Shown: piece by piece, positions 6,666 to 22,592 of the stretch
How positions within the stretch are numbered: the stretch's first letter is position 1
Layout of the letters: each line of letters begins with the position of its first letter
NCBI GenBank assembly: GCA_963801665.1
Contig: CAWDFL010000003.1
Span: 280,901-344,900, forward strand
DNA: 64,000 bases
Origin: an uncultured delta proteobacterium
GTDB taxonomy: Bacteria; Desulfobacterota; Binatia; Binatales; Binataceae
Direction: 5' to 3'
Notes under the pieces: generated by a model
The model's database searches: none
What the model was told of the DNA's origin: nothing
What the model saw: only the letters and a program-made list of their open reading frames with translations
Translations under genes and position numbers: made by a program

Positions 6666-8168
6666 ATGAAACAGCAGTTCACGACAGAGGTTCTGATCGT
6701 CGGCGCGGGGGCGGCAGGATTGACCCTGGCAATCGATTTGGCCCGCCGCAACGTCGCGTTTCGCTTGATCGACAAACTGCCCAGCCCGTTCGCGGGCTCG
6801 CGCGGCAAAGGCATCCAGCCGCGCAGCCAGGAAGTATTCGAGGATCTGGGCGTTATCGACCGGCTCGTGGCCGTCGGCGGGACCTATCCGCCGCAGCGCG
6901 AATATCGGGAGGATGGCAGCTATCAAGACTCGCCGGTGATGGAGCAGCACGCGGCCACGCCGGACGAGCCCTATCTGATCCCGCTGATGGTGCCGCAATT
7001 CCTGACCGAGGCGGTGCTGCGCGAGCGCCTTGTGGAACTCGGGCACCGTCCGCATTTCGGCTGCGAGCTTAAGGCTTTCGAGCAGGACGCTGACCGCGTA
7101 ACGGCTCATGTCGTGAGCGCCGATTGCGAGGAGACCGTGCGAGCCCGCTATCTGGTCGGCACCGACGGCGGCAAGAGCTACGTCCGGCACGCGTTGAACA
7201 TCGAATTCCCCGGAAAGACCTTGGGGGTCAGAGCCGTGGTCGCGGACGTTCGGCTGGAGGGCCTCGGCACCGACGCGTGGCATCGGTTCAACGAGGGCTC
7301 GATGGGAAAGCAGATCTCATTTTGTCCGCTGCGCGGGACCGACATGTTCCAGGTGCAAGCGCCGATCCCGATCGAGGGTGATATGGATCTCTCGCCCGAG
7401 GGATTGACGGAATGGGCGGCCACGCGCACCGGCCGCAAGGACATAGTGATTCGCGAGGTCCTGTGGGGTTCCGCTTATGAGATGAACGCGCGCATGGCCG
7501 ACAAATACCAGGTCGGCCGCGTCATCATCGGCGGCGATGCCGCACATATCCATCCGCCGACGGGAGGCCAGGGTCTAAATACCAGCGTGCAGGACGCCTA
7601 TAATCTCGGATGGAAGCTTGCGGCCGTGATCAACGGCGCACCGGAGAAACTGCTCGCGACCTACGAGGAAGAACGTCGCCCGATCGCGGCGGAGATGCTC
7701 GGCCTCTCGACTAAACTGCTGCAGGCCGCCAGAGAGCGGGGCAGTATGCGTCGCGGGCGCGAGACGCATCAACTCGATTTGGGTTATCCCCAATCGAGCC
7801 TGTCTCTCAATAAACCGGCGCTATCTCCGGAACGCGTGATGGCCGGAGACCGCGCCCCGGACGCTCCCATCAAGGGCGCGGCGGGCCAACCCACGCGGCT
7901 GTTCAAAGTCTTTCAGGGTGCGCACTGGACTTTGCTCGGTTACCAGGCCTGCCGCGAGGCGATCGCGCCGCGCCGCGGCTTGCACGTCCATACGGTCGGC
8001 GTGCGCGGAGACATCATCGATGAGAGCGGATACGTTCGCGACGCCTACGGCGTCTCGGCTGGCGACTGGGTGCTGGTCCGGCCGGACGGCTATATCGGAG
8101 CGATCATATCGTCCGGCGAGATAGCGGCCTTAAGCCGATATCTGGACGATGTCGGCATCGCCGCGTAA
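6666..8168 (+). CDS. FAD-dependent aromatic-ring monooxygenase (PheA/TfdB-like)
   Basis: N-terminal GxGxxG (VLIVGAGAAGLTLA), DG fingerprint (GTDGGKSYVR) and GD motif (IGGDAAHIHPPTGGQGLNTSVQDAYNLGWKL); 500 aa. Confidence 0.85.
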   Translation: MKQQFTTEVLIVGAGAAGLTLAIDLARRNVAFRLIDKLPSPFAGSRGKGIQPRSQEVFEDLGVIDRLVAVGGTYPPQREYREDGSYQDSPVMEQHAATPDEPYLIPLMVPQFLTEAVLRERLVELGHRPHFGCELKAFEQDADRVTAHVVSADCEETVRARYLVGTDGGKSYVRHALNIEFPGKTLGVRAVVADVRLEGLGTDAWHRFNEGSMGKQISFCPLRGTDMFQVQAPIPIEGDMDLSPEGLTEWAATRTGRKDIVIREVLWGSAYEMNARMADKYQVGRVIIGGDAAHIHPPTGGQGLNTSVQDAYNLGWKLAAVINGAPEKLLATYEEERRPIAAEMLGLSTKLLQAARERGSMRRGRETHQLDLGYPQSSLSLNKPALSPERVMAGDRAPDAPIKGAAGQPTRLFKVFQGAHWTLLGYQACREAIAPRRGLHVHTVGVRGDIIDESGYVRDAYGVSAGDWVLVRPDGYIGAIISSGEIAALSRYLDDVGIAA

Positions 8169-8280
8169 CCCGCCGCGGCTTTCGGGATAAATCGGGCACC
8201 GACTGCAAGTGGGCTATCTTTGGTGTTGCTTCCTGACGCCCAGAAGAGGGTGTCGATTTTCCCGCAAACCCTCCGTTGGT

Positions 8281-8388
8281 GTCATCTTGAGCCACAGGCG
8301 AAAGATCTCCGCGAAGCGATTAGTGCAACCAACTTGGGCTTTGCGCACTAATCGCTGCGCGGAGATCCTTCACTTCGTTCAGGATGAC
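8281..8388. repeat. nested palindromic MITE/REP-like element
   Basis: Outer arms gtcatcttgagccacaggcgaaagatctccgcg / cgcggagatccttcacttcgttcaggatgac, inner arms aagcgattagtgca / tgcgcactaatcgct, loop accaacttgggcttt. It lies in the convergent intergenic space and translates to the typical spurious 'VILS...FVQDD' peptide (ORF 8209..8463). Confidence 0.6.
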
Positions 8389-8439
8389 AGACAAGAACTC
8401 GGCGTTTATCGACAGCCTCTAGAAGGGCGAATCTCCTTC

Positions 8440-9831
8440 CTAGGTGCTTTTGACCTGTCCTAGAAGATAGATCAATCCCTCGGACATTGTCGGATGAGCG
8501 AAGATCGTATCGCGCAACACGGTGTATGGCAGCCGCCCAACCATCGCGGTTTGAACTGCCCCCATCAGCTCACTTGCCTCGATGCCAAAAGCGGTGAAGC
8601 CCACGATTTGGTCGCTGTCTTTGCCGATCAGCATCTTCATAAAGCCGCGGGGTTCGGCAATCGTGTGGGTGCGGAGCACATTTGCCATCGGCAGTTTCGC
8701 GACGCGATATTCGATTTTGTCGCGCCTCGCCTCGGTCTCGTTGCGGCCCACGCGCGCCAGCTCCGGATCGGTGAACATGCAGAACGGCACGATCCGATCC
8801 TTCGTGGTTCGATTGCCGCCCCTTAAGTTGTCACGCACGACGCGGAAGTCGTGATAGGCGACGTGTGTGAATTGCGGACTGCCCGCGCAATCGCCCATCG
8901 CCCACACGTTGGATGCACTCGTCTCCAGCCGGTCGTTGACCTTGATATAGCCACGCTCGTCGAGCTCGACGCCCACTTGCTCCAGTCCGATTCCTTTCGT
9001 ATTCGGCGTCCGGCCAACGGAGACGAGGAGATCGGTACCTTCGACGATTCGTTCACCGGGACCGTCTTTAGCGTAGACCCGAACCTCCTTCCCTGAATGT
9101 CCCTCGACCTTAAGGACCTGAGTGCCGAGCAACACCTCGATTCCTTCATCGTGAAACAAATCAAGCAGAGCGGCGCCAACCTCCGGATCCTCCCGCTCGG
9201 CGAGCTGCGCGCCTCGTTCGATCACGGTCACCTGCGATCCGAACCGCTGCATTGCCTGCGCGAGTTCAAGGCCTATATAGCCGCCGCCAATTACTATGAG
9301 ATGAGGCGGCAGACGATCGAGATCGAGCAACTCGATATGGGTCATCGGATTCGACGCGGCGAGCCCGGGAACATTGGGCATCGTCGAATGCGAACCCAGG
9401 TCGAGGAACACACGTTCGCCGACAATCCGCCTGGTGCCGCCATCGTTGAGCGCGACCTCGATCGTCCTCGGAGCAAGGAAGCGGCCTTCACCCATGATCA
9501 GTTCTATTCCGGCGTCCGCGGTACGCCTGGCGTGGAACTGATGTTCCGCTTCCACCATATGGCGTTTGCGCCGCTGAACGCCGGCCATGTTGATTCGGAG
9601 CCGATCCATTTCCAGTCCGAATTCAGCGCCGCGCCGCGCGAGCGATGCTACCCGCGCGGAATAGATCACGTTCTTGCTCGGCAGGCATGCGATATTAGGA
9701 CACGAGCCGCCGAGCCATTTCCGCTCGACCATCGCGGTGCGACGACCCTCATCGGCCATCGTCCAGGCGATCCACTTGCCGGCTTCTCCGCTTCCCAGAA
9801 CTAGAGTTTCGTATTTTTCAGTGTCAGCCAT
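8440..9831 (-). CDS. class I pyridine nucleotide-disulfide oxidoreductase (Lpd/MerA-like FAD flavoprotein)
   Basis: GxGxxG (VLGSGEAGKWIA), redox-active disulfide GGSCPNIACLPSK, second NAD-binding GxGxxG (IVIGGGYIGLE), C-terminal dimerisation domain. Confidence 0.8.
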   Translation of the reverse strand: MADTEKYETLVLGSGEAGKWIAWTMADEGRRTAMVERKWLGGSCPNIACLPSKNVIYSARVASLARRGAEFGLEMDRLRINMAGVQRRKRHMVEAEHQFHARRTADAGIELIMGEGRFLAPRTIEVALNDGGTRRIVGERVFLDLGSHSTMPNVPGLAASNPMTHIELLDLDRLPPHLIVIGGGYIGLELAQAMQRFGSQVTVIERGAQLAEREDPEVGAALLDLFHDEGIEVLLGTQVLKVEGHSGKEVRVYAKDGPGERIVEGTDLLVSVGRTPNTKGIGLEQVGVELDERGYIKVNDRLETSASNVWAMGDCAGSPQFTHVAYHDFRVVRDNLRGGNRTTKDRIVPFCMFTDPELARVGRNETEARRDKIEYRVAKLPMANVLRTHTIAEPRGFMKMLIGKDSDQIVGFTAFGIEASELMGAVQTAMVGRLPYTVLRDTIFAHPTMSEGLIYLLGQVKST

Positions 9832-9859
9832 GGACTCGTCTCCTGATTAGCGAAGGCGA

Positions 9860-10555
9860 TCAGCCGCTCATCGCTTCGCCGATCGCCTCGCGTATTATTT
9901 CGACGACGAGGCCGGGCGCAGTAACGATTGACGCGTGGTCCACCGGATGCGATCGCACCCGGGCGTGCATCCGCTCCGCCATAAAGCGCTGCGTATCGTG
10001 GACGATCATGCGGTCCTGCTCCGCGATGAGAAACCAAGTTGGGCGGTCTTTCCAGAGCGGACGACTCACAGGCACCGTGATGCAGGCAGGCGAAATCGGC
10101 CGCTGAACCGCGCGGAGCAGCGCCAATTCGTCAGCGGAAGCGTTCTGCGCGAACACCGCGGCGAACGATTCGTCCGGCAAATAGATCAGCCCATGATTGT
10201 CCGGCGCCAACTTTGGAGCCAGCGGATGAGGCTTGGCACGATAGAAGACATCGGCGACGGTCTCGCCCTCGTCAGGAGCAAGGGCGGAGACGTAAACCAG
10301 CGCCTTCACCTTCTCACTCCGTGTAGCGGCGATCACGGCCCCAGCGTAGGCATGACCCACAAGAACCACCGTCCCCGAAACTCGCTCGAGCGCGCGCTCA
10401 ACCGCCTCCGTGTCCGCAGCGAACGAGGTCAGTGGCAACGGCGCCGCGAGCACCCCGACGCCTTCGGCAGCCAGCGGCACGATGACCTTGGCCCAGCTCG
10501 ATCCGTCAGCCCAAGCGCCGTGCACCAGCACAACACTCACATTTTCACGCGACAT
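9860..10555 (-). CDS. alpha/beta hydrolase
   Basis: 231 aa; VVLVHGAWADGSSW and GHAYAG nucleophile-elbow variant. Confidence 0.7.
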   Translation of the reverse strand: MSRENVSVVLVHGAWADGSSWAKVIVPLAAEGVGVLAAPLPLTSFAADTEAVERALERVSGTVVLVGHAYAGAVIAATRSEKVKALVYVSALAPDEGETVADVFYRAKPHPLAPKLAPDNHGLIYLPDESFAAVFAQNASADELALLRAVQRPISPACITVPVSRPLWKDRPTWFLIAEQDRMIVHDTQRFMAERMHARVRSHPVDHASIVTAPGLVVEIIREAIGEAMSG

Positions 10556-11240
10556 TGGTTCTCTCCCGATGCCGCGCGATCAACTGATCGGCGACGTCGT
10601 TCAAGTTTGCACCGACGATCTGCGGCTGCGGGCCGACTCCCAGGACGTCGTTGCCCACCCGCTTGATCAAGGCAGCCTCCCAGCCCGCGGCGACGGCGCC
10701 TAGGGTGTCCCATGTATGGCAAGCGATAAGACAGAGCTGAGACGGCTCGGCTCCGAGTTCTCTCTCAACGTAGGCGTAGGCCTGCCGAGAGGGTTTGTGA
10801 TGCTTAACGCCGTCCGCACTGAAACGCCGCTCGAAGAGATCGGCAATCCCACCGTGTTCGAGCTGACGCGCCTGCACCTCCGGCAAATTGTCCGTCAAGG
10901 TGAAGAGCCGGAATCCTGCCGCCCGGAGCTTCTGAAGAGCCGCCGGCACCTCCGGATAGGGAGGCATCGTCGAGAATTTTTCAAAGAGCTCCTTCTTATC
11001 CGTGTCCTGAATCACTATGCCGCGTGTGTTGGCCAGCATCTTCATCACAGCCGAACCGATATCGGTGAACGGCACATAGCATCCGGCTACCGTCAGAGCC
11101 GCGGAATACATAATGAGGTTAGCGAACCAAAGGCGCATTGCGCCTTTGTCGCGGAAGATACGCTCGAACGTCGGCTCCATGGTCGTTAGATCGAGTAGCG
11201 TCTCATTCACGTCGAAGACGATTAGAGGAAGAGCGTTCAC
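10545..11240 (-). CDS. HAD-family hydrolase (haloacid dehalogenase-like)
   Basis: LIVFDVNETLLD (motif I) and ...KPSRQAY... (motif III region). The ORF extends to 11312, but the likely start is GTG giving MNALPLIVFD. Confidence 0.7.
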   Translation of the reverse strand: MNALPLIVFDVNETLLDLTTMEPTFERIFRDKGAMRLWFANLIMYSAALTVAGCYVPFTDIGSAVMKMLANTRGIVIQDTDKKELFEKFSTMPPYPEVPAALQKLRAAGFRLFTLTDNLPEVQARQLEHGGIADLFERRFSADGVKHHKPSRQAYAYVERELGAEPSQLCLIACHTWDTLGAVAAGWEAALIKRVGNDVLGVGPQPQIVGANLNDVADQLIARHRERTNVA

Positions 11241-11375
11241 GTGAATACACTCCAATTTGTTTCGCGTCGCTGTCCAGGTCCGCGAGCTTCTCGAGAACGA
11301 TTGCACGCACAATGGTTCTCCGACACATCAGTGCGCGCCATCTCGTGCGAGAAGCGGGCGCACTGAGCCACGAAA

Positions 11376-12302
11376 CTAAGGGACGAGAAACTCGCGGATC
11401 GCCGCCGCAATCTCGGCGGCGTGGGTCTCCAGCGCGAAGTGTCCGGTATCGAAGAAGCGAACGGAGGCACCGCTAATATCGCGTTTGAATGCCTCGGCGC
11501 CTGGCGGCAGGAAGAAGGGGTCGTTCTTTCCCCATACCGCCAGTAGTGGCGGCTTGTGCTCTCGGAAATATTTCTGGAAGGCCGGGTAAAGCGCGACGTT
11601 GGTCTTGTAGTCGCCGAATAAGTCGAGCTGCGCCTCGTCCGCGCCTGGCCGGGCCAGATAGAAATTATCGAGCGAGTATCCGTCTGGCGAAACCGCCGTC
11701 GCATCAGAGACCCCGTGTGTGTATTGCCAGACGGTCGTCTCGGGCTTGAGGAAAGCGCGGAGTGCGTCGCGGTTGGCTTGCGACGGGTTCTCCCAATAGG
11801 CCCGGATCGGATTCCAGCCATCGCTCAAACCTTCCTCGTAGGCGTTGCCGTTCTGTGAGACGATCGCGGATATACGTTCCGGATGCTTTAGGGCAATCCT
11901 CAAGCCCACCGGCGCACCGTAGTCGAAGATGTAGATCGCGAACCGTTTCAACCCGATCACCTCGGTAAAGCGATCGATTACATCGGCGAGATTATCGAAG
12001 CTGTATTTAAACTTATCGCGGGGCGGCAGATCCGATTGACCGAAGCCCGGCAGGTCAGGCGCTACGAGGTGAAAGCGGTCGGCGAGAAGTGGAATCAAAT
12101 CGCGGAACATATGCGACAACGTCGGGAAGCCATGAAGCAGCAAAACAACCGGCGCGTTCAACTCACCGGCCTCGCGATAAAAAATCTTCATCCCGCTCGA
12201 GTTCACAGTGCGATAGCGTACGATGGGTGAAATCACTTGATCAGTATTCATGATGCCTTCCTTCGTGAGTATTCGGCGATTTACCCGCGTTCGCCTTCTC
12301 AT
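11376..12302 (-). CDS. alpha/beta hydrolase (epoxide hydrolase/haloalkane dehalogenase-like)
   Basis: LLLHGFPTLSHMFRDLIPLLADRFHLVAPDLPGFGQSD; the likely start is the internal Met (MNTDQ..., ~12252). Confidence 0.8.
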   Translation of the reverse strand: MRRRTRVNRRILTKEGIMNTDQVISPIVRYRTVNSSGMKIFYREAGELNAPVVLLLHGFPTLSHMFRDLIPLLADRFHLVAPDLPGFGQSDLPPRDKFKYSFDNLADVIDRFTEVIGLKRFAIYIFDYGAPVGLRIALKHPERISAIVSQNGNAYEEGLSDGWNPIRAYWENPSQANRDALRAFLKPETTVWQYTHGVSDATAVSPDGYSLDNFYLARPGADEAQLDLFGDYKTNVALYPAFQKYFREHKPPLLAVWGKNDPFFLPPGAEAFKRDISGASVRFFDTGHFALETHAAEIAAAIREFLVP

Positions 12303-12310
12303 GAAATTAA

Positions 12311-12877
12311 CTAACGCTCCGGGATCTGCGGAGCCTCAGAGTCAGCGCGCTGAACAAACCGCGCACCAGCGCGGATCGAGGACTCATCGCGGCCGATCAC
12401 CTTGTCCACGAATCGTCTCAGAAAAAAATCGATACTCAGCCATCCCGCGCCTGAAAAGAACAGCCAGACAAACGACAGCGCATACAGCGGTTCATCGAGT
12501 TCGGCAAAGTCATCGAGGCCCCCGACATGCTTCAGTTTCACAGTCAGGATCGCGACTATCATATTGATGATCATGGGAATCGAAACGAAGCGCATTCCCA
12601 ACCCGAGAATCGTCAGCGCACCACCGAGGAATTCCGTGTACGCCGACAGCGCGGCGTTGAAACCGGGGTAAGGAATTCCCCACTGCGCGAACCTCATCGT
12701 GAATGCGTCGAGGTTGTGAATCTTTCCCCACCCGGTCTCCATGAAGAAGTAGCCGACAAACAGACGCATCAGGAGCGCGGGAATCCACCACGCAGCCGAC
12801 AGCCGGTCGAAGAGTTCCGCCGCCGCAATTATGAGCTTTTTCCGGTACACGCTGCTAAGGCCCTCGGGTCCGCGCAA
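12311..12877 (-). CDS. DoxX family membrane protein (BufD-like position)
   Basis: 188 aa, 4 TM helices, DoxX-type sequence (LLMRLFVGYFFMETGWGKI...). Divergent from the Cys-rich precursor gene. Confidence 0.8.
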   Translation of the reverse strand: MRGPEGLSSVYRKKLIIAAAELFDRLSAAWWIPALLMRLFVGYFFMETGWGKIHNLDAFTMRFAQWGIPYPGFNAALSAYTEFLGGALTILGLGMRFVSIPMIINMIVAILTVKLKHVGGLDDFAELDEPLYALSFVWLFFSGAGWLSIDFFLRRFVDKVIGRDESSIRAGARFVQRADSEAPQIPER

Positions 12878-13006
12878 CTTAGATGCGCCAGGACTGACGA
12901 GGTTACAGACTCGCGTTCGCTCGCCAGAGTTCGAATGTCAGGACTGAAACCTTTCTGTCGCTGCGGAATCAAAGTCCCATATCCCAACTCCCTAGGAGGA
13001 GAAAAA

Positions 13007-13270
13007 ATGAACGCGAAGAATCTGCTGATCGCCAGTGCAGTGGCGATGCTGTTTGTAACCGGCGCCGTGAATGCCCGCGCCGATCAGAGCGCGGGCACCG
13101 ATCAGGTGAAGTGCGTCGGTGGGAACAGCTGCAAGGGACAGTCGGCCTGCAAATCCGCGCACAATGACTGCAAGGGCAAGAACGCCTGCAAAGGACAAGG
13201 CTTCGCCCAAACGACCGCGCAGGATTGCAAAGACAAGGGCGGCACCGTCGCATCGCTTGACAGCAAGTAG
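13007..13270 (+). CDS. bufA: Sec-signal-peptide, 6-Cys RiPP precursor (bufferin BUF_6/12Cys-like, BufA)
   Basis: AGGAGG RBS 8 nt upstream; MNAKNLLIASAVAMLFVTGAVNARA signal peptide (AxA site), then KCVGGNSCKGQSACKSAHNDCKGKNACKGQGF...DCKDKGG with repeated C-K-G-x-x-x-C spacing. The supplied 247-aa ORF (12527..) is an artefactual upstream extension. Confidence 0.7.
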   Translation: MNAKNLLIASAVAMLFVTGAVNARADQSAGTDQVKCVGGNSCKGQSACKSAHNDCKGKNACKGQGFAQTTAQDCKDKGGTVASLDSK

Positions 13271-13318
13271 ATCCAAAAAGGCGGACCTCGGCTTCGCAGC
13301 CGGGGTCCGGCCAAATAC

Positions 13319-14161
13319 ATGAGCTTCTTACCCCATCTAGGTCACGGCGTCGGTCTTCGGACCGTTCACTATCCGCAGGTCCTGGACAGGACCGCGCGCT
13401 CGGATTGGTTCGAAGTAATTTCGGAAAACTTCATGATTGCAGGCGGACGGCCTCTGCAGATACTGGAGAAAGCTCGGGAGCTCGCGCCAATCGTTCTTCA
13501 TGGCGTCTCGCTCAATATCGGAGGAACCGATCCTCTCAGGCCAGACTATCTCGCCGATCTCGAGTCGTTGATTCGACGGTTCGATCCAGCTTGGGTTTCC
13601 GATCATCTTTGTTGGGGAGCTAGCGGCGGCCGATTTGCCCACGATCTTTTGCCGCTTCCCTACACTGAAGAAGCGGTGAGGCACGTTGCTTGCCGAATCC
13701 GCCGGGTTCAGGACCGCCTCGGCCGACGCATCCTTGTAGAGAATGTTTCCAGCTACCTGACCTACACCATCTCGTCGATGCCCGAATGGGTCTTTCTTAC
13801 CGCGGTCGCTGAGGAAGCTGACTGCGGAATTCTGTTGGACGTCAACAATATCTACGTTAGCGCGAGCAATCACGGATTCTCGCCCTTCGAGTATCTCTCG
13901 GGAATTCCTGGGGAGCGGGTTGGGCAGATCCACCTGGCTGGTCACAGCACTTCGGGAGACTTGCTGATCGATACGCACGATCATCCTGTTCCGACGCCGG
14001 TGTGGCGGCTTTATCGCGAGGCGGTGCGAAGGTTCGGCGGTGTATCGACTCTCGTGGAATGGGACGATCAGATCCCTTCTTTCGGCGAACTCCTGGCCGA
14101 AGCGAATCGCGCGCGCAAAATTGAGAATGAGGTACTCGGTGCAAGCTGCGTCTCTCCATGA
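13319..14161 (+). CDS. bufB: DUF692 multinuclear non-heme iron oxidase (MbnB/BufB-like MNIO)
   Basis: 280 aa; LGHGVGLRTVHYPQVL...WFEVISENFM...SDHLCW...LVENVSSY, typical of the DUF692/MbnB TIM-barrel family. Confidence 0.85.
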   Translation: MSFLPHLGHGVGLRTVHYPQVLDRTARSDWFEVISENFMIAGGRPLQILEKARELAPIVLHGVSLNIGGTDPLRPDYLADLESLIRRFDPAWVSDHLCWGASGGRFAHDLLPLPYTEEAVRHVACRIRRVQDRLGRRILVENVSSYLTYTISSMPEWVFLTAVAEEADCGILLDVNNIYVSASNHGFSPFEYLSGIPGERVGQIHLAGHSTSGDLLIDTHDHPVPTPVWRLYREAVRRFGGVSTLVEWDDQIPSFGELLAEANRARKIENEVLGASCVSP

Positions 14162-14214
14162 AGTACAGCGTCTGTTCTGGGAGTCTGTAGCGAGACGGCC
14201 CGGCCGCGACTCGA

Positions 14215-14922
14215 TTGCACCCGCCTTCGTCAGGATGGTTCGCGGCGCTAATGACGGCGATCGAAAGAATCGAATCCGCGTTTATTCAGACGCTTACTAC
14301 TTGCGTCTACGGCGACGTCCTCCGCGAAGACTTCCATCGAGTAGCCGCTCTGCTCGGCGCCGGCCAATTCGACCAAGTTGTGGCAAACTATCTGGAGGAG
14401 TTTCCCTCGGAACAGCCATCGGTCCGTCATTTGGGACGCGCTCTCGCCGAATTTCTGCGGCGCCGAGAAGACCTGCCAAAGTGCCTTGCCGATCTCGCGG
14501 AACTCGAATGGGCCCGCGTCGAAGTTTTTGACGCAACCGACGCCTCATGCGCGACGATCGAGGACCTGGTCTCCGTTCCCCCAGATTACTGGCCGGCTTT
14601 GCGCTTTCGGGCGATACCCGCAATGCAAACTCTGCGCACTCAATACCCCGCGCATCAACTTTGGTCCGGCGCCGAGTCCCTGGAACTGTCAGCGGCCGAG
14701 ACTTCGCTCCGCGTGTGGCGCAAAAATGGCGAGGTCCTTCATGCGTCGATGGACGAGCGAGAGTCGGCGGCGCTGAGTAGGATGGTCTCAGGCGAACCGT
14801 TCGCCGCAATCTGTGAAACTTTCACAGATCTGCCCGAGATGGATGCGGCGCAAGAAACGGCTGCGCTTCTCGTGCGATGGATCGAAGACGGGATCATCAG
14901 GCGAATTCGCGCCGCCGATTAG
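14215..14922 (+). CDS. bufC: DUF2063 partner protein (MbnC/BufC-like)
   Basis: 235 aa immediately downstream of the DUF692 gene. DUF2063-like N-terminal region (FQTLTTCVYGDVLRED...LAELEWARVEVFDA). TTG start at 14215 or ATG at ~14251. Confidence 0.75.
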   Translation: MHPPSSGWFAALMTAIERIESAFIQTLTTCVYGDVLREDFHRVAALLGAGQFDQVVANYLEEFPSEQPSVRHLGRALAEFLRRREDLPKCLADLAELEWARVEVFDATDASCATIEDLVSVPPDYWPALRFRAIPAMQTLRTQYPAHQLWSGAESLELSAAETSLRVWRKNGEVLHASMDERESAALSRMVSGEPFAAICETFTDLPEMDAAQETAALLVRWIEDGIIRRIRAAD

Positions 14923-14923
14923 A

Positions 14924-15193
14924 CTACGATGCCTTCGGCCGCTTTGGTCCATTGTTCAGAATCCTGAGGACAAGGGAATTCGGAATTACGGTTTCGCCGG
15001 AATGGCTCGAGTCTTGCGCTATTCGCCTTAACGCGCTGACGGTCAGCTCATATCCCTTCAGGTACTCCGAGCATCGCCTGCATTGGACGACGTGCTGCGA
15101 AAACGATCTGCGGTCAGTGTCGCTCAATTCCCCGTCTCTCAAGAGACGAATCAAGCCGACGAATTTCCGGCAGGTCATCGGGCTACGCCGCAC
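14924..15193 (-). CDS. putative zf-HC2 (ZAS-type) anti-sigma factor
   Basis: 89 aa: MTCRKFVGLIRLLRDGELSDTDRRSFSQHVVQCRRCSEYL, the canonical DGEL...H-x3-C-x2-C anti-sigma zinc motif. Overlaps the NDH-2 3' end by ~11 nt and converges on bufC. Confidence 0.45.
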   Translation of the reverse strand: MRRSPMTCRKFVGLIRLLRDGELSDTDRRSFSQHVVQCRRCSEYLKGYELTVSALRRIAQDSSHSGETVIPNSLVLRILNNGPKRPKAS

Positions 15194-16559
15194 GGCTTTC
15201 CTTATCGTCGGAGCCCTTCGAGGCCGTCGTGCCGAGAGGATGTCTGGCAGTCACGTAGGCGAAGTCTTTCGCAAAGCACAGATCCAGCGTCCAATCGAGC
15301 GCAACGCGCATCTTTTTCTCGAGCCGGGGGAGTTTGAACAGGTAGATTGTGCGCCACAGCCACCAGGCAGAGAACCCCGAGAAGTTGAGGCCAAAGACAT
15401 TCGCCACGCCCGTGCGCCGGCCGATTGCCGCGCGCCGGCCCAACGTCGAGAACCTAAATGGCCTCCTCTTGCCTCCAACGATATCCGCGGCGACGTTGCG
15501 CGCGGCGCATCGTGCTTCGCGAATCGCGTGCTGAGCAGTTGGCGGATGGAATCCTCCCGTCTTGAGGTCAGGAATCGAAGCGCAGTCGCCCAGCGCCCAC
15601 ACGCCGGGAAATTCTTTGTTTTCCAGGTATTCATTGACGAGGATGCGTCCACCTATTTTTGGTACTGGCAGTGCGGCAACCAGAGGATTCGGTGCATTGC
15701 CGGCCGCCCAAATTAGCGTGGTGGCGGGAATCGTCCGGCCGTCTGAGAGCTCGACGATGCCGTCACGCACTGACGTGACACGCGAGCGAGTGATTATCTC
15801 GACACCGCGCGCAGCTAGCTTGCGTTGCGCGTAGGCTCCGAGCTTGTTGCCCAACTCCGGCAAGATGAACTCGTCAGACGATACAAGAATCGTGCGGACA
15901 AATTCCGGCGTCAGGTTGGGATAAAAGCGAATCGCCTGGCGGAGGAAGTCATTGATTCCGCCCAGCGTTTCGACTCCCGCGAAACCGGCGCCCACTACCA
16001 CAAACGTGAGCAGCGGCTGCCGTTTGCCGGCCGCGCACTCCGAGTTCGCTTCTTCGAGATGCGTGATCAGTCTGTTTCTCAATTCGATGGCGTCGTCGAG
16101 CGTTTTGATAGTCAGCGCTATCTCCTGCACCCCCGGCAGGCCGAAGAAATTCGTTCTAGAACCGAGCGCGACTATCAGATGGTCGTAGGCGAGTTCGTGG
16201 ACGTGGCGATCGAAGCCATGGGTGACGGCGACGCATCGCCGTTCCAGGTTTATCGTTTCTATGTCTCCGGTGAAGGTCTTCACTCTGCGGAGCAGCTTGC
16301 GAAGAGGATTGACGATGGTGTTCATTTCGAGATCGCTCGCCGCTACCTCGTGCAGCATCGGCGTGAACAAAAAGTAGTTGTCGCGCGTTACCAGTGTGAT
16401 GCTTACATCGGCCCGGCGGTGCAGAGTTTTTTCCAATTCCATAGCGGCGTAGATGCCGCCGAACCCGCCGCCAAGTATCAGGACTCTGTGGGCGCAATCC
16501 GCGCTTGCGTTGGCCTCGGGAATACCGCCGCATCCGTCTTTATTTTCGGTTTGATTCAA
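15183..16559 (-). CDS. ndh: type II NADH dehydrogenase (NDH-2)
   Basis: Two GxGxxG dinucleotide folds (VLILGGGFGGIYAA; FVVVGAGFAGVE), C-terminal membrane-anchoring amphipathic region; 458 aa. Confidence 0.85.
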   Translation of the reverse strand: MNQTENKDGCGGIPEANASADCAHRVLILGGGFGGIYAAMELEKTLHRRADVSITLVTRDNYFLFTPMLHEVAASDLEMNTIVNPLRKLLRRVKTFTGDIETINLERRCVAVTHGFDRHVHELAYDHLIVALGSRTNFFGLPGVQEIALTIKTLDDAIELRNRLITHLEEANSECAAGKRQPLLTFVVVGAGFAGVETLGGINDFLRQAIRFYPNLTPEFVRTILVSSDEFILPELGNKLGAYAQRKLAARGVEIITRSRVTSVRDGIVELSDGRTIPATTLIWAAGNAPNPLVAALPVPKIGGRILVNEYLENKEFPGVWALGDCASIPDLKTGGFHPPTAQHAIREARCAARNVAADIVGGKRRPFRFSTLGRRAAIGRRTGVANVFGLNFSGFSAWWLWRTIYLFKLPRLEKKMRVALDWTLDLCFAKDFAYVTARHPLGTTASKGSDDKESRAA

Positions 16560-16628
16560 TTGATTCGTTCACGCCGGAGCCGTTGAAAGTGCCTGATTAT
16601 TCGATAGCTTAGATGCGTCTCAGGCCGA

Positions 16629-18689
16629 GTGGTTTCATCATTTCCGTTGGCGTACAGACGGTTTGTCATTAAAATAAGGGCGCTTACGAAGCCCCTGACT
16701 GTCGCGGCGGAGTTCTCTTTGGCGGGTGAGAAGCAATTCGCGGAGCAGACCCCTTTCGACGACGCCGCGCTGCGAGAGATCGTCGAGGGCGTCGAATCGG
16801 AGACGGGCGATCGTTTCTTCTACTCGCTCGTCAAACATCTCGCATCCGCCCTCGGCTGCGAGTACGCGTTTGTCTCCGAACTCCTGGCAGATGGTTTGAG
16901 GTTTCGGACGCGCGCGGTATGGGGACGCGGAAGTTTCATGGAAAACTTCGAAATGTCCCTCAATGGCACTCCATGCGAAGCAGTTCTGAACGGCAAGTCC
17001 TCTCATCATCCCGAACGGATCTGCCAGCTCTTTCCCTCTGACAGCGCTCTTAAGCAGTGGGGCGTCGAGAGCTATTGCGGCGTTCCGCTGCTTGATTCGG
17101 TTGGGATCGTGGTCGGCCACCTGGCAATCCTGTCGGAGCGGCCGATGTGGGAGGGACCTCGCGGCCTCGCGATCATGCGAGTTTTTGCTACTCGCGCGCG
17201 CGCCGAATTAGAGCGGCTGCGCACCGAGGATGCACTGCGCCGCGCGAACGAGGCGTTGCTACGCAGCGAAGAGCGCTTTCGTGACCTGTTCGACGAGGCT
17301 CCTATAGCCTACGTGCATGAAGACCTTGACTCCCGGTTCATCGAGGCGAACCGCACAGCGATGAGGATCCTCGGTCTCAAGCCCGAGGAGGTTGCCGGGA
17401 TGACCGGAAGGTCTTTGGTGCCTGACACGCCCGCCGCGCAGCGCGCCCTGAGCGAGTGGCTCGACTCAATGACGCGAGGCTCCTCCGCCACTAGCGGCAG
17501 GGTCCTTGAGCTGCGCCGCAAGGACGACGACAAGCCCGTTTGGATCCAGTGCTGGTCGAGGCCGGCTCCCGACGGCAGCTACACGCGCACTATGTTTATC
17601 GATGTAACGGACCGCGTGCTCATGGAGCGGGAGAAGGCGCGCCTGGAAGCTCAAAACACCTACCTGATCGAAGAGATCAAGGAAACGCACAACTTTGAGG
17701 AGATAGTCGGGCGGAGCCGGGCTCTGGCCGAGGTGATCGAAAAGGTAAAGCTTGTCGCGAGCACCGATTCGTCGGTGCTGATTCTGGGAGAAACCGGCAC
17801 CGGAAAGGAGCTGATAGCGCGCGCAATACACTCGAACAGCGAGCGCAGGAATCGGCCTCTGGTCAAGGTGAACTGCGCCGCTCTTCCTTTTGGTCTTATC
17901 GAGAGCGAATTGTTTGGTCATGAGAAGGGAGCCTTCACCGGCGCGACCGATCGCCGCATCGGCCGGTTTGAGCTCGCGCACGGAGGGACGATCTTCCTGG
18001 ACGAGATCGGCGATATGCCGGCCGATGTGCAGGCGAAGCTGCTCCGAGTTCTCCAAGAGCATGAATTCGAGCGGGTCGGTGGCTCGAACCTGATCAAGGT
18101 TGACGTGCGCGTGATCGCGGCGACCAATCGCGATCTTTTTCGATCGGTTTCCGAGGGAACTTTCCGGCAGGATCTCTACTACCGCCTCAACGTCTTCCCG
18201 GTTCAAATGCCGCCGCTACGTGAACGCCGCGAAGATATTCCACCGCTCGTGCACTATTTCGTCCGCCGCTTCAGCTTGAAAATCGGGCGCAAGATAACCC
18301 GCATCCAGCGCGAAACGATGGAAAGGCTGGCCAGCTATGCCTGGCCGGGAAATGTGCGGGAGCTCGAAAACGTGATCGAGCGCGCTGTAATCCTGTCGCG
18401 AGGGAACGAACTCGAAGTCGCTCCCGGCGTCTTGCCGGAGATCGCGCCTGTCGCGCACGCGCAAACAGCCCCACCACGGCGCGCGCCAGAGGAAAAGGTT
18501 CCGGCGCTTCCTCGGCCGCAAAGTATAGATCAGGTGGAACGCAATCACATTCTCGAGGTTCTGATGCGAACCAACTGGCGAATCGAAGGAACTGAAGGCG
18601 CAGCGGCATTGCTGAACCTCAATCCCAGCACGCTTCGCAGCCGTATGAAAAAGCTCGGAGTCCAGCGAAACACTCAAGCGACTTCGTAG
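16629..18689 (+). CDS. sigma-54-dependent transcriptional activator (GAF-PAS-AAA+-HTH)
   Basis: Sensory N-terminal domains, AAA+ sigma-54 interaction domain ([36 protein letters not shown] motif, [10 protein letters not shown]), C-terminal Fis-type HTH. Confidence 0.85.
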
Positions 18690-18730
18690 ATCCGCGAGAT
18701 ATCGCGGGCGAGCGTCGCGGCTCGTGGTCT

Positions 18731-19720
18731 TTGGACGGCCTGAATTACCGAAATCGTTGCGATATTGATCGTGGCCTGCGCCTTGCTGTGAACGAGGCCA
18801 TGATCAGAATCACCGCCGTTACCCACCCGGACTGCAAGACTCGAGTCATTGTCGAGGGCCGAATAACTAAGGTCTCATCCGTCGAATTGGCCGGCGTATG
18901 CCAACAGCATCTCACGCGGGGAGGTAACCTGGAGCTTGATCTGTCGGAAGTGACCTTCGCGGACCGCGATGGCGTAGCCTTGGTGCACGATTTGATCAGC
19001 CAGGGCTGCGTACTTGCGGAGTGCTCGGAGCTGGTGCGCACGCTGGTCGACGATCACTCATCGCAGTCGCCGAAGTCTGATCGCGCAGGCGACGAAGCGC
19101 GGTTGCTTGCGAAACTACGCGCCGGCGAAGAGGGCGCATTCGAACTGGTGGTTCAGCGATACGGCGGGCGCATGCTCGCAACCGCGCGGAGATTTCTGAA
19201 CAATGAGTGCGACGCGCAGGATGCAGTTCAGGAGGCGTTTGCTTCCGCGCTTCGCGCGCTCGACAAATTCAACGGTGACGCGCTTTTGTCGACCTGGCTT
19301 CACCGAATCGTCGTAAACGCTGCTCTGGTGCAATTGCGGTCCAAAAGGCGCAGATGCGAGCAGCCGATAGAAACGTTGCTGCCGCGCTTTGGCCGAGACG
19401 GCGAATGGATCGACGAGCAAGTAACATGGACCAACGCGGCCGAAACCGTTCTCGAAAGTCGCGATTCGCGCGAGATGTTGCGGCGCTGCATCGAGCGACT
19501 TCCCGAGAAGTACCGTTCCGTCCTCGTGCTACGCGACATCGAGGAGCTGGATACTGACGAGGCTGCCCGGTCGCTCTCGGTCACTGTGAACACCGTCAAA
19601 GTGCGGCTCCATCGAGCTCGCCAGTCACTCAAGACTCTCATCGAGCGAGAGCGTGTGCTTCGGTCGCACAATTCGAACCACACGGCGGCGAGAAGTGGAA
19701 TCAAATCGCGGAACATGTGA
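18731..19720 (+). CDS. ECF (sigma-70 family) sigma factor with N-terminal STAS-like extension
   Basis: Residues ~25-110 resemble a STAS/anti-sigma-antagonist fold (IRITAV...ELDLSEVTFADRDGVALVHDL). Residues ~125-315 are sigma regions 2 and 4 (DAQDAVQEAFASALRALDKF...TWLHRIVVNAALVQLR; LPEKYRSVLVLRDIEELDTDEAARSLSVTVNTVKVRLHRAR). The last ~12 codons read antisense through a hydrolase gene fragment. Confidence 0.65.
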   Translation: MDGLNYRNRCDIDRGLRLAVNEAMIRITAVTHPDCKTRVIVEGRITKVSSVELAGVCQQHLTRGGNLELDLSEVTFADRDGVALVHDLISQGCVLAECSELVRTLVDDHSSQSPKSDRAGDEARLLAKLRAGEEGAFELVVQRYGGRMLATARRFLNNECDAQDAVQEAFASALRALDKFNGDALLSTWLHRIVVNAALVQLRSKRRRCEQPIETLLPRFGRDGEWIDEQVTWTNAAETVLESRDSREMLRRCIERLPEKYRSVLVLRDIEELDTDEAARSLSVTVNTVKVRLHRARQSLKTLIERERVLRSHNSNHTAARSGIKSRNM

Positions 19721-19836
19721 CCGGCGGTCGGAAACCCATGCAATAAGAGCAAGTTTGGGGCGTCTGGCCGGCCGGCTTCGCGATAGGAAATCTTGAGGCC
19801 ACCAATATCGGCGGCGCGGTAGTATATCCCCGGCAT
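19688..19836 (-). pseudogene. truncated 5' fragment of an alpha/beta hydrolase gene paralogous to 11376..12302
   Basis: Reverse-strand MPGIYYRAADIGGLKISYREAGRPDAPNLLLLHGFPTAGHMFRDLIPLL, then homology ends abruptly at ~19688. The 30-mer ggcgagaagtggaatcaaatcgcggaacat is identical at 12086-12115 and 19688-19717. Confidence 0.55.
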
Positions 19837-20290
19837 GACAAAACCTCTGGGTAGAGATCGCGTTAACCTAACTGAGGACATCAATCGGGCTACTCAAGCC
19901 CGCGCGCTTAGGGAATGGTTTCGCGCCTTTGTTCTCGCCCACAAGGGCCTTTCGTTAGGACCAGAGTCGCTACACGAACTTGGGCCTCTGAACAGGATAC
20001 TCGAGCGCGACGACGCGTACGGGGCGATAGCAGTCAGGTCAGTCGATGCGCCCGATCGGTTGGCGACGTTCTGGACTTGAATGGCGCACCCTGCGCCGCT
20101 GGCAAACGCCGGACTCTCTCATCCTGCCGATTGCGCACGCAATAGCGAGCCTGCTTACTTCCGAGGATCTTTCTCACGTGAAGGCATGCGAAAGGTCTCC
20201 GTGCACACTCTTCTTCCTGGATAGGACTCGCAGTCAAGCTCGCTTCGCCGCTTCGTCGCCAGATCACGACGTTCGCAGATACCGGACCAC
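19835..20290 (+). pseudogene. degenerate ABATE/zf-CGNR-like gene (frameshifted, zinc ribbon eroded)
   Basis: Frame 1 (19835..20080) and frame 2 (20046..) together give ...LILPIAHAIASLLTSEDLSHVKACERSPCTLFFLDRTRSQ..., resembling the C-terminus of CGNR zinc-finger proteins but lacking the final RRWCS...CGNR motif. Confidence 0.3.
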
Positions 20291-20295
20291 GAGGC

Positions 20296-20925
20296 GTGTT
20301 ACGTCATCCACAAACCGGCCTGCTTTCTCATGCGGTTCAAATTTTTGGCGTCTGTTTTGTGATCCTCGCGGTTCTTATGTTCGCCAGCAGCCGCTTCGGT
20401 AAATTTCGCGCGCGCGACCGACTGCTCGAACGCCTGAAGCTCCGCGGAGACGAAACCGTGGTCGATGTCGGGTGTGGTCACGGGCTCCTGCTCATCGCCG
20501 CCGCCAAGATGCTGCCGCAAGGCCGCGCGGTCGGCATCGATCTCTGGTCGATGGATCAATCCGACAATTCGCGTGAAGCCACGCTCAGGAATGCCGCGCT
20601 CGAGGGAGTTGCCCAGCGAGTCAGCGTTTATGACGGAGACATGCGCAAAATGCCCTTCGCCGACCGCAGTTTCGACGCCACCGTCGCCCACTTCGCCATT
20701 CACAACGTTCGCCGCCGCGAAGGGCGCCGTGAAGCCATCCGTGAAATCGTGCGCACCCTCAATCAGGGCGGCCAGGTCGCGATTTCCGACATATTCAGCA
20801 TCGACCTCTACGCCGACGAGTTGCGCAAGTCGGACATGATCGATGTGGAAATATCCGGCCTCAGTTTCTGGACGTTTCCTCCCGCCCGCACCGTGACCGC
20901 AAGGAAGCATTCGCAATCGGTCTGA
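20296..20925 (+). CDS. class I SAM-dependent methyltransferase with N-terminal TM helix
   Basis: VVDVGCGHGLLLIAAA motif I; 209 aa. Confidence 0.75.
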   Translation: MLRHPQTGLLSHAVQIFGVCFVILAVLMFASSRFGKFRARDRLLERLKLRGDETVVDVGCGHGLLLIAAAKMLPQGRAVGIDLWSMDQSDNSREATLRNAALEGVAQRVSVYDGDMRKMPFADRSFDATVAHFAIHNVRRREGRREAIREIVRTLNQGGQVAISDIFSIDLYADELRKSDMIDVEISGLSFWTFPPARTVTARKHSQSV

Positions 20926-21607: not shown

Positions 21608-22515
21608 TCATCCGGCGAATCGGGGCTCGGGCTTTCCTTTTACGCCGAGTCCCTTGATTGCGAATAGCGCGCCACCATCGGGGCCCGGATCCATGTTAAG
21701 CGTCTTCGTTCCGATCGATGTCGTGTAAAGCACGTCGAGGTTTTCACCGCCGAACATTGCGCTGGTGATGATCGGGACTGGAACCTCAACCGTGCGCGCG
21801 ATAGTGCTGTCCGGATTGAAGCACACGAACTTGCCGCCGCCGGCGATAGCCGACCAGAGATGGCCTTCCGCGTCGACGGTTGCACCGTCGGGCACGCCAC
21901 CCATCCCCTTCACTTTCACGAACTCGCGTTTGTTTGAGACCGTCCCGGTGGCGAGATCATAGTCGTAGGCGTAGATGGTTCGCGTCACGCTGTCCGATAG
22001 ATAGAAAGTTCGATTGTCGGGCTGAAGCACGGCCCGTTGGTTTTCAGAGCGCCATCGATGCTGAAAACGGATCCGGCCGGTTCGGCGAATTTCGTGTCCA
22101 GTGTGCCGGCGACGAATCTTCCGTGCGCATCGGTCTTGCCGTCATTGAAGGTGGTTCCCGGCTTGGCGACGATTCCGTTCGGCACCGGGGTCGTGTTGCC
22201 TGAATCAAAATCGAGGAAATAGAAGCCGTCGCTCAGCGCGCAGATGGCACCGCCTTTTTCACGGATCGCGAAGGAGCCGATCTGCTTCGGCATCGTCCAG
22301 CTCTTTACGTTGTTCGTTTTCGGATCGAGCCGGTAAATCGCCGGCGCATTGCCGTCGATCCAGTAGAGCGCCTGTTCAGCAACGTCCCATACCGGACCTT
22401 CGCCGAGCTTATTCTTTACGCCCGGGATTTTCTCGATCGAGATTGCCATGATTGAACCTCTAGAAGCTGACGCGGTCCGCGCCGATTCTAGAATTTGCCG
22501 TACGAACCTGTCCAA
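21608..22515 (-). pseudogene. SMP-30/gluconolactonase/LRE-family protein, interrupted by -1 frameshift near 22018
   Basis: N-terminal half (ORF 21985..22515: GEGPVWD...LYWIDGNAPAIYRLDP) and C-terminal half (ORF 21608..22030: DNRTFYLSDSVTRTIYAYDYD...PDGATVDAEGHLWSA) are in different frames. The junction ...LKTNGP / (LAF)SPDNRTFYL sits at plus-strand cgattgtcgg (one G short). Confidence 0.7.
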
Positions 22516-22592
22516 CCGATCGCGGAGGTATCTCCGATGGACAGTTTAATCCGAGCGCGCTTAGAATCCCGAGCCAGCAGGAGGATCAAGTC

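Follow-up and report, generated by a model that had tools for sequence, protein, structure and literature searches.

We found that a 64-kb window of DNA from an uncultured delta proteobacterium of the Binatia (GenBank assembly GCA_963801665.1, contig CAWDFL010000003.1, positions 280,901 to 344,900 of the forward strand; all coordinates below are positions in this window) very probably harbors a biosynthetic cluster for a Buf2-type (BUF_6/12Cys) bufferin (captophorin), composed of a gene for a secreted six-cysteine precursor, bufA, followed by those for an MNIO enzyme, bufB, and its DUF2063 partner, bufC. Existing curated models (BufA2 and BufB) suffice to name the cluster, work in Caulobacter has already established its likely chemistry and function, and the cluster extends bufferin 2 to the Binatia, an uncultured soil lineage. 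The regulatory neighborhood is the only part with some novelty: here we tentatively propose, as a possibility somewhat short of an even chance, that Binatia Buf2 is one arm of a stress regulon (bufABC, doxX and ndh2-zas) under an extracytoplasmic function (ECF) sigma factor fused to a STAS-like domain and a zinc-binding anti-sigma (ZAS) protein of the RsrA/MseR type. The core of the cluster, all on the plus strand, comprises:

12994-13001, plus strand: Shine-Dalgarno sequence of bufA, AGGAGGAG, read from the sequence and kept in the relatives L001-L004
13007-13270, plus strand: bufA2 precursor gene, 87 aa, matching NF050166 (Cu_RiPP_BufA2)
13280-13312, plus strand: GC-rich hairpin in the bufA-bufB spacer, 12-bp stem, minimum free energy (MFE) -27.3 kcal/mol
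13319-14161, plus strand: bufB, MNIO (DUF692) enzyme, 280 aa, matching NF050167
14139-14922, plus strand: bufC, DUF2063/HvfC_N partner, GTG start at 14139, interrupted by one extra G at 14311

The comparisons draw on three sets of sequences. Five syntenic relatives (L001-L005) are metagenome-assembled genomes (MAGs) labelled Candidatus Binatus or 'delta proteobacterium', with BufB identities of 86-89%. L081 is an independent JGI metagenome contig, located by an exact look-up of the BufA2 sequence and 98.9% identical to window positions 11361-20329 (97 substitutions and two indels over 8969 bases in the DNA alignment); exact look-ups of the BufB and ECF sigma factor sequences returned no encoding contig. 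A wider survey of Buf2 neighborhoods covered 80 loci holding relatives of the window BufB.

The class assignment is carried by the precursor, which scores 90.3 bits on NF050166 (cutoff 60) over profile positions 3-78 of 79 and gives no match in a search with the DUF2282 profile, in keeping with the proposal of an earlier note on this DNA that it is of the BUF_6/12Cys rather than the DUF2282 type. Its six cysteines (residues 36, 42, 48, 55, 61 and 74), which include two exact units of the C-K-G-x3-C spacing pointed out in that note, are all retained in L001-L004. The note's cleavable AxA signal peptide is likewise borne out by a heuristic prediction: residues 1-25 (13007-13081) form a putative Sec-type signal with a lysine at position 4, a hydrophobic core spanning residues 5-21 and A-R-A in positions -3 to -1 (residues 23-25), so that the protein reads MNAKNLLIASAVAMLFVTGAVNARA up to the predicted ARA↓DQ cleavage site and DQSAG...DSK beyond it. 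The SARA↓(D/Q) cleavage region is kept in relatives of BufA, and neither a twin-arginine motif nor a lipobox was seen in this N-terminus. The remaining core of 62 aa (13082-13267) contains all six cysteines and has a predicted monoisotopic mass of 6220.815 Da unmodified and 6202.674 Da in the mature form. In a scan of the 64 kb, no small open reading frame (ORF) other than bufA had a signal-peptide-like N-terminus together with an AxA site and four or more cysteines. The BufA protein is identical on L081. A consensus scan of the bufA region found neither a sigma70 promoter nor an intrinsic terminator.

The 48-nt spacer between bufA and bufB (13271-13318), whose length the earlier note had given correctly, contains the GC-rich hairpin, the 3′ arm of which stops 6 nt before the bufB ATG and is followed by no T-tract; no Shine-Dalgarno sequence precedes that ATG. 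The 12-bp stem is common to five sequences (the window and four relatives), with three pairs changed on both sides. Among 64 Buf2 loci the corresponding spacers have a median MFE of -32 kcal/mol, 69% of them with a folding z below -2, and T-runs follow some of these hairpins. The likely role of the hairpin is to hold precursor expression above that of the enzyme, for which partial termination, transcript stabilization or occlusion of the bufB start are conceivable routes.

BufB scores 366.3 bits on NF050167 (MNIO_BufB; cutoff 310) and 357.6 bits on PF05114, and falls below the cutoffs of the HvfB, ApyH, MbnB and ChrH equivalogs. It aligns to the DUF692 structure 3BWW (E 4e-48) with the HG, DH, VEN, DVNN, HLAGH and DTH motifs kept, and these are the motifs that hold the iron ligands in the DUF692 family. 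The window protein differs from that of L081 at one residue. Among the 80 surveyed loci with BufB relatives, 71 have a BufA2 match and 76 a BufC match, and wherever all three genes occur their order is bufA-bufB-bufC. Among the marks of a Buf2 cluster, the window displays a match to the BufA2 model, six cysteines, a signal peptide (by the heuristic) and an adjacent MNIO of the BufB subfamily.

The third gene, bufC, is more problematic. Its GTG start at 14139 overlaps bufB by 23 nt, and its first 57 codons (N-terminus VQAASLHEVQRLFWES...VYSDAYYLRL) lie in a different frame from the one that ends at 14922, which opens only at 14215 and is without DUF2063 profile positions 1-35. The profile searches suggested in the earlier note matched BufA2, DUF692 and DUF2063, with no match to DUF2282; its DUF2063 family assignment for this gene stands, but the ORF is not intact as it had supposed, the extra G at 14311 having been overlooked. 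As given, ORF 14215-14922 scores 40.3 bits over profile positions 36-83 only, and BufC repaired by removing that base scores 60.5 bits over positions 5-83. In L001-L005 and L081, bufC is intact, with one continuous frame of 259-260 aa, and the repaired protein is identical to the 260-aa BufC of L081. Both indels between the window and L081 are single-base duplications in the window, each of which breaks a reading frame; the second, an extra T at 20069, disrupts an ABATE-like gene (about 19832-20400). A gene of the SMP-30/gluconolactonase (SGL) family, 7.7 kb from the bufC frameshift, is also split, into overlapping ORFs at 21985-22545 and 21608-22141 that cover profile positions 1-125 and 141-245. 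Because three broken genes thus fall within 8 kb, beside an unchanged bufA and a bufB with one substitution, we regard these as probable residual assembly indels, and judged from the sequences the bufC frameshift is most likely an assembly error; if it were real, the strain would be unable to mature the peptide with this copy of bufC. Programmed frameshifting was considered and rejected, as the six related loci have one continuous frame and the difference is a plain CGC-to-CGGC change. The Microflora Danica MAG among the relatives (L003) has frameshifts of its own in its NDH-2 and sigma54-activator genes (its positions 7870-9332 and 9414-11376), which shows that indel errors are common in MAGs of this lineage. 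Such single-base indels that break genes matter for gene-content inference from the present assembly.

For the product, the closest known system is buf2ABC of Caulobacter vibrioides (CCNA_03001-02999), the founding BUF_6/12Cys member (PMC11626156), with which the window shares a BufA2-equivalog precursor with a Sec signal, a core of about 61-62 residues and six cysteines, an MNIO of the BufB subfamily, a DUF2063 partner and the order bufA-bufB-bufC. The Caulobacter peptide is cleaved at the predicted signal-peptidase site and shows a shift of -18 Da; its four central cysteines account for -4.03 Da each, CysI and CysVI carry no modification and are probably linked by a disulfide, and the product absorbs near 305 nm (PMC11626156). 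Cu2+ induces it, Fe, Zn and Mn do not, and it confers protection against copper (PMC11626156). The view of the earlier note that the chemistry and metal specificity of this class are unknown is superseded by that work, which established four thiooxazoles, a probable disulfide and induction by copper (PMC11626156). For Buf1, modification requires BufB and BufC, which are also sufficient, and can do without DoxX (PMC11626156), and all MNIO/DUF2063 products have been grouped as 5-thiooxazole copper metallophores under the name 'captophorins' (PMC13097082). By analogy, we posit that BufB and BufC would oxidize the four central cysteines of the precursor (core C17, C23, C30 and C36) to 5-thiooxazoles in the cytoplasm, that Sec export of the peptide would follow, with cleavage after ARA, that a disulfide would form between core C11 and C49, and that the resulting small folded peptide would sequester periplasmic copper.

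Other MNIO systems are more distant. Caulobacter buf1ABCD with sigF-nrsF resembles the window in its MNIO, DUF2063 and DoxX genes, Sec-exported precursor and in the thiooxazole formation and copper buffering predicted for the window, but its precursor is of the DUF2282 type, to which the window precursor has no match, with four cysteines (two of them modified), and its doxX is last in the operon. The oxazolin system HvfABC(X) of Haemophilus influenzae and the fontiphorin system likewise pair an MNIO with a DUF2063/RRE protein, make a copper-binding thiooxazole and have a companion of the DoxX family; in contrast to these, the window precursor is without the EGKCG repeats of the HvfA and fontiphorin precursors, and BufB reaches only 255.9 bits on the HvfB model (cutoff 360), with BufC and DoxX also below the corresponding Hvf cutoffs (see below). 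Methanobactin biosynthesis by MbnABC has in common with the window an MNIO that oxidizes cysteines of a ribosomal peptide to a copper-binding heterocycle. It differs in that BufB scores 56.6 bits on the MbnB equivalog TIGR04159 (cutoff 325), the partner in the window is a DUF2063 protein and not MbnC, and the window precursor has a Sec signal, whereas the Mbn leader is cleaved before secretion as a small chalkophore; both the oxazolone-thioamide chemistry of methanobactin and its role in copper acquisition are unlike those predicted for the window cluster.

Divergently from bufA lies a DoxX gene, and both genes, as well as a convergent operon beyond bufC, are preceded by copies of one promoter-like motif:

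12311-12850, minus strand: doxX, BufD-like DoxX membrane protein, likely start GTG at 12850, 179 aa
12878-12907, minus strand: sigmaE-type promoter-like motif before doxX, TGTAACC-N14-GCATCTAAG, one mismatch to the pattern
12945-12974, plus strand: sigmaE-type promoter-like motif before bufA, TGAAACC-N14-GAATCAAAG, followed by 32 nt (12975-13006) to the ATG
16608-16637, minus strand: sigmaE-type promoter-like motif before the NDH-2/zf-HC2 operon, TGAAACC-N14-GCATCTAAG

The DoxX protein scores 67.1 bits on Pfam DoxX (cutoff 23.6). Its gene also adjoins bufA divergently in L001-L004 and L081, and a DoxX gene lies within 6 kb in 23 of the 80 Buf2 loci; that DoxX is a frequent extra member of bufferin operons, as stated in the earlier note, agrees with a published survey of MNIO clusters (PMC12452194). 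The note had recognized the divergent gene correctly, and its ORF is open to TTG 12877 (12311-12877). This codon directly abuts the -10 element of the conserved motif, which ends at 12878, and is therefore not the doxX start; GTG 12850 is the likelier one, and the 179-aa form is also called in L081. On the same strand, an alpha/beta-hydrolase gene (11376-12302, minus strand), whose haloalkane-dehalogenase-like matches are all below cutoff, starts 8 nt past the doxX stop and is probably co-transcribed with doxX, an arrangement found in L081 and not in L001-L004.

The motif has the form TG(A/T)AACC-N14-G(C/A)ATC(A/T)AAG, with the geometry AAC-N18-TC(A/T)AA. The bufA and NDH-2 sites supplied the pattern, and the doxX site is an independent match; at up to one mismatch it occurs three times in the window, each time before a start codon and in the correct orientation, against none in 100 shuffles. 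The bufA copy is kept in L001-L004 and in four loci from more distant Binatia (L010, L016, L021 and L033), the doxX copy in L001-L004 and L016, and the NDH-2 copy, at 0-1 mismatch and with spacers of 14-15 nt, in L001-L005. The -10 elements are TCAAA before bufA and TCTAA before doxX and NDH-2, respectively those of sigmaE of E. coli and of the meningococcus (PMC2893595). With its AAC in the -35 element, its TC(A/T)AA in the -10 element, its position and its conservation, the motif has the features of sigmaE-type ECF promoters, and we predict all three copies to be promoters. The earlier note had singled out two direct repeats of CAGGACTGA in the divergent region as a possible regulatory site. 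The two copies do exist (12889-12897 and 12939-12947, the only exact ones in the 64 kb), the one inside the spacer of the opposite-strand doxX motif and the other overlapping the -35 element of the bufA motif, but they are not kept in L001-L004 at 77-80% DNA identity, and we reject them as an operator. A sigma54 promoter on which the activator encoded nearby could act was rejected as well: TGGCAC-N5-TTGCW was found 20 times in the window against 22.8 expected, with no match upstream of bufA, doxX or ndh2.

Beyond bufC, the neighborhood continues with four genes of regulatory or redox character:

14924-15193, minus strand: zf-HC2 (ZAS) anti-sigma-like protein, 89 aa, cytoplasmic, PF13490 26 bits (cutoff 22.2)
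15183-16559, minus strand: NDH-2-like flavoprotein, Pyr_redox_2 150.6 bits, NDH2_C 28.5 bits, first gene of the NDH-2/zf-HC2 operon
16629-18689, plus strand: GAF-PAS-AAA+-HTH sigma54-dependent activator, flanked by the NDH-2 operon and the ECF sigma gene
18800-19720, plus strand: sigmaE-like ECF sigma factor, STAS-like domain at its N-terminus, candidate partner of the zf-HC2 protein, ORF open from 18731

The zf-HC2 protein has the ligands C8, H34, C38 and C41, all four kept in eight homologs, with the spacing of RsrA (C11, H37, C41, C44) and MseR (C4, H30, C34, C37), and shows no membrane or hydrophobic segment. On NCBIfam it stays below the cutoffs of the RsrA model (23.3 vs 62.5 bits) and of an anti-sigma model (24.9 vs 50), and JGI gives the name anti-sigma factor RsiW to a protein of its 90% cluster. 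The NDH-2 gene overlaps the start of the zf-HC2 ORF by 11 nt, which places the latter at the distal end of the NDH-2 operon, convergent with bufABC and outside the buf operon, although it may matter as a regulator. The gap between the two convergent stops (14920-14922 for bufC and 14924-14926 for zf-HC2) is 1 nt rather than the 2 nt reported before. No terminator lies between these two genes. As bufABC and the NDH-2/zf-HC2 operon have the same motif, their induced transcripts would run into each other. NDH-2 is syntenic in L001-L005 and L081. In the more distant Binatia loci L015 (3727-5579) and L016 (712-2629) it stands upstream of doxX on the same strand with a gap of 122-133 nt, perhaps as one operon, and in L015 both genes are transcribed away from bufA. 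Such an arrangement hints at a functional, quinone-linked NDH-2/DoxX pair tied to Buf2 clusters.

The ECF sigma factor is well supported by profile matches (Sigma70_r2 60.7 bits, Sigma70_r4_2 65.2 bits, TIGR02937 98.6 bits with a cutoff of 42.9), and its region 2 is 38-41% identical to that of E. coli sigmaE. In a model built from 30 homologs (mean pLDDT 62, about 83 over the first 85 residues), the sigma part retrieves E. coli sigmaE, AlgU, SigW and SigH with Foldseek, and the first ~85 residues of an N-terminal extension of roughly 110 residues form a folded domain that retrieves the STAS anti-anti-sigma proteins RsbV (6M36) and RsfB (8IH8) with TM-scores of 0.5-0.7 and root-mean-square deviations of 2.3-2.8. 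Precomputed STAS Pfam matches exist for many homologs of the sigma factor. Close homologs (64% identity or more) are numerous in soil metagenomes, and each of the 120 matches listed is one of them. The family consensus FADSDG of the STAS-like domain reads FADRDG in the window (Ser to Arg), at a position that we take to be the phosphorylatable serine of RsbV/SpoIIAA. STAS goes unmentioned in the ECF reclassification paper, which describes N-terminal extensions as uncommon, and neither a STAS-ECF fusion nor sigma/anti-sigma genes of Buf2 clusters appear in that paper or in the MNIO survey (PMC12452194). The sigma54-dependent activator is kept at its place between NDH-2 and the sigma gene in all close relatives.

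We think, on comparative grounds, that an ECF/ZAS pair probably controls the cluster, because the ZAS and sigma genes keep their synteny, become neighbors in L015 and have counterparts at nine other Buf2 loci. L001-L005 and L081 all preserve the block doxX-bufABC-ZAS-NDH2-activator-sigma in synteny. L015 has this set of genes in another arrangement, with the ZAS and STAS-sigma genes adjacent and divergent, and is the only locus in which these two adjoin. At the nine loci (L029, L030, L031, L034, L036, L040, L046, L048 and L053), an ordinary ECF sigma gene and, behind it, a zf-HC2 gene lie divergently in the roughly 1 kb directly upstream of the cluster; the pair abuts bufA2 in seven of them and bufB in L046 and L048, for which no bufA2 turned up. 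The anti-sigma proteins of these loci have H-x3-C-x2-C and are about 280-320 aa long in eight cases, of which that of L029 is one with a hydrophobic, membrane-like segment, and 79 aa, of the soluble type, in L040. A motif search in the L029-type loci gave conserved blocks and no copy of the window's motif. Probably, though with lower confidence than for the peptide itself, bufABC, doxX and the NDH-2/zf-HC2 operon would be driven by the neighboring STAS-fused sigma factor, and the cytoplasmic zinc-binding anti-sigma would probably hold it inactive until a thiol-reactive or metal signal arrives. If this is true, the sigma factor would have a built-in module akin to partner switching, and periplasmic copper buffering would be coupled to a quinone-linked redox pair (NDH-2 and DoxX). 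The proposal also amounts to a testable regulatory map of three sigmaE-type promoters, a cytoplasmic ZAS and a STAS-fused ECF sigma factor.

In its regulatory logic the cluster comes closest to the rpoE operon of Neisseria meningitidis and N. gonorrhoeae (NMB2140-NMB2145, NGO1948-NGO1943), which consists of a DoxX-like gene, three hypothetical genes, sigmaE and the ZAS anti-sigma MseR (PMC2893595), and in which NGO1945 carries DUF2063 (PMC3511200). Common to both are a DoxX-like gene, an ECF sigma factor of the sigmaE type and a cytoplasmic ZAS with the Cys/His spacing of RsrA, and the Neisseria -10 element TCTAA is identical to that of doxX and NDH-2 in the window. The intervening genes of the Neisseria operon presumably code for the precursor, MNIO and DUF2063 proteins. 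Gonophorin is one MNIO-PME1 product named in the literature (PMC13097082). Neisseria has a single autoregulated operon and a precursor that is not of the BufA2 type, whereas the window has three transcription units, an unlinked sigma gene without the motif, a STAS-like domain on the sigma factor and a putatively co-regulated NDH-2. Control by an ECF-type sigma factor, which we infer for the window, has been shown for Caulobacter buf2. That cluster has no doxX and is governed in trans by SigF and the membrane anti-sigma NrsF (DUF1109) through promoters of the form GTAACC-N16-CGAA (PMC3511200); the window differs by a divergent doxX with its own promoter, a candidate cytoplasmic ZAS, a -10 element TC(A/T)AA, a host in the Binatia rather than the Alphaproteobacteria and the frameshift in bufC.

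Several points weigh against these readings. As given, the extra G at 14311 (CGC to CGGC) parts bufC into two frames and the cluster is not intact. Repaired BufC covers positions 12-235 of 237 of the HvfC model at only 62 bits (cutoff 142), a sequence search of it against solved structures returned nothing meaningful that would bear on a putative RRE-like domain, and DoxX reaches 69 bits on the HvfX-family model (cutoff 80). No BufC-specific NCBIfam model matched repaired BufC, and the sub-cutoff scores of BufC and DoxX may simply reflect that models specific to BufC and BufD do not exist. Modification, export, metal specificity and induction are all assigned to the window cluster by homology. 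A decaying cluster, in which the extra G is real and BufA2 is exported unmodified or matured by a BufC from elsewhere, would account for the frameshift as it stands; the two further broken genes nearby (20069 and the SGL gene at 21608-22545) would suit a pseudogene-rich genome, and precursors without an adjacent MNIO have been noted, with the functionality of all such clusters questioned (PMC12452194). We consider it unlikely, given that repaired BufC and bufA are identical to those of L081, bufB is one residue off, both indels are single-base duplications confined to the window while the six related loci agree with one another, and the 1.88-Mb source contig looks typical of long-read assemblies with residual indel errors. 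It is very improbable that the modified residues are oxazolone-thioamides as in methanobactin. These are isomeric with 5-thiooxazoles and hard to distinguish from them, and were the first assignment for oxazolin and MovA; but MNIO/DUF2063 products have since been reassigned to 5-thiooxazoles, with the absorbance near 305 nm as a diagnostic (PMC13097082), two further preprints agree with this, and the low score of BufB on the MbnB equivalog also argues against it. A response to, and protection against, a stress other than copper (thiol-oxidative stress, sulfur, hypochlorite or another soft metal), with the peptide as an arm of a redox-stress regulon alongside DoxX and NDH-2, appears distinctly doubtful, more so than decay. 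It draws on the candidate anti-sigma being a cytoplasmic ZAS of the RsrA/MseR type, a class of sensors for thiol oxidants or unknown cytoplasmic cues, on the motif that NDH-2 and doxX share with bufA, on the neighboring genes scanned, which include neither copper-efflux nor multicopper-oxidase genes, on Caulobacter sigmaF targets that also respond to Cr and Cd, and on Microbulbifer mmrABC, which is not copper-induced. Against this, every characterized MNIO/DUF2063 product binds copper (PMC13097082), Caulobacter bufA2 answers to Cu2+ and not to Fe, Zn or Mn and protects against copper (PMC11626156), and the NCBIfam BufA2 model names the family a copper metallophore.

For the regulon, the opposing points concern the link between the ZAS and the sigma factor. 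In the window the two genes are 3.5 kb apart with two other genes between them, one of which codes for the GAF-PAS-AAA+ activator, so that the usual arrangement of a ZAS encoded beside its cognate ECF sigma gene and co-transcribed with it is absent. Autoregulation of the sigma gene is not supported, the best upstream match to the motif having five mismatches; in L015 the motif is present only in degenerate form; the promoters could be read by a different ECF sigma factor encoded elsewhere in the genome; and the MNIO survey reports sigma/anti-sigma genes in Buf1 and not in Buf2 clusters (PMC12452194), a statement with which the nine ECF/zf-HC2-bearing Buf2 loci are at odds. All of this would fit zf-HC2 and ECF sigma genes that are mere neighbors of the cluster, with the motif read by another sigma factor or serving as an operator, for instance of the sigma54-type activator. 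We hold this to be on the unlikely side, if less so than decay of the cluster: the motif has ECF geometry with -10 elements identical to those of sigmaE, a search for sigma54 -24/-12 promoters around the genes of the neighborhood gave none and their consensus is not enriched in the window, the block is syntenic in L001-L005 and L081 and brings the ZAS and sigma genes together when rearranged in L015, ECF and ZAS pairs abut nine other Buf2 loci, and Neisseria offers a precedent with the same set of components (PMC2893595).

At about 20328, beside the ABATE-like gene, roughly 800 bp of L081 (8967-9771) are missing from the window. This L081-only segment includes a gene for a TetR-family regulator (L081 8902-9531) and constitutes a strain-level insertion or deletion.

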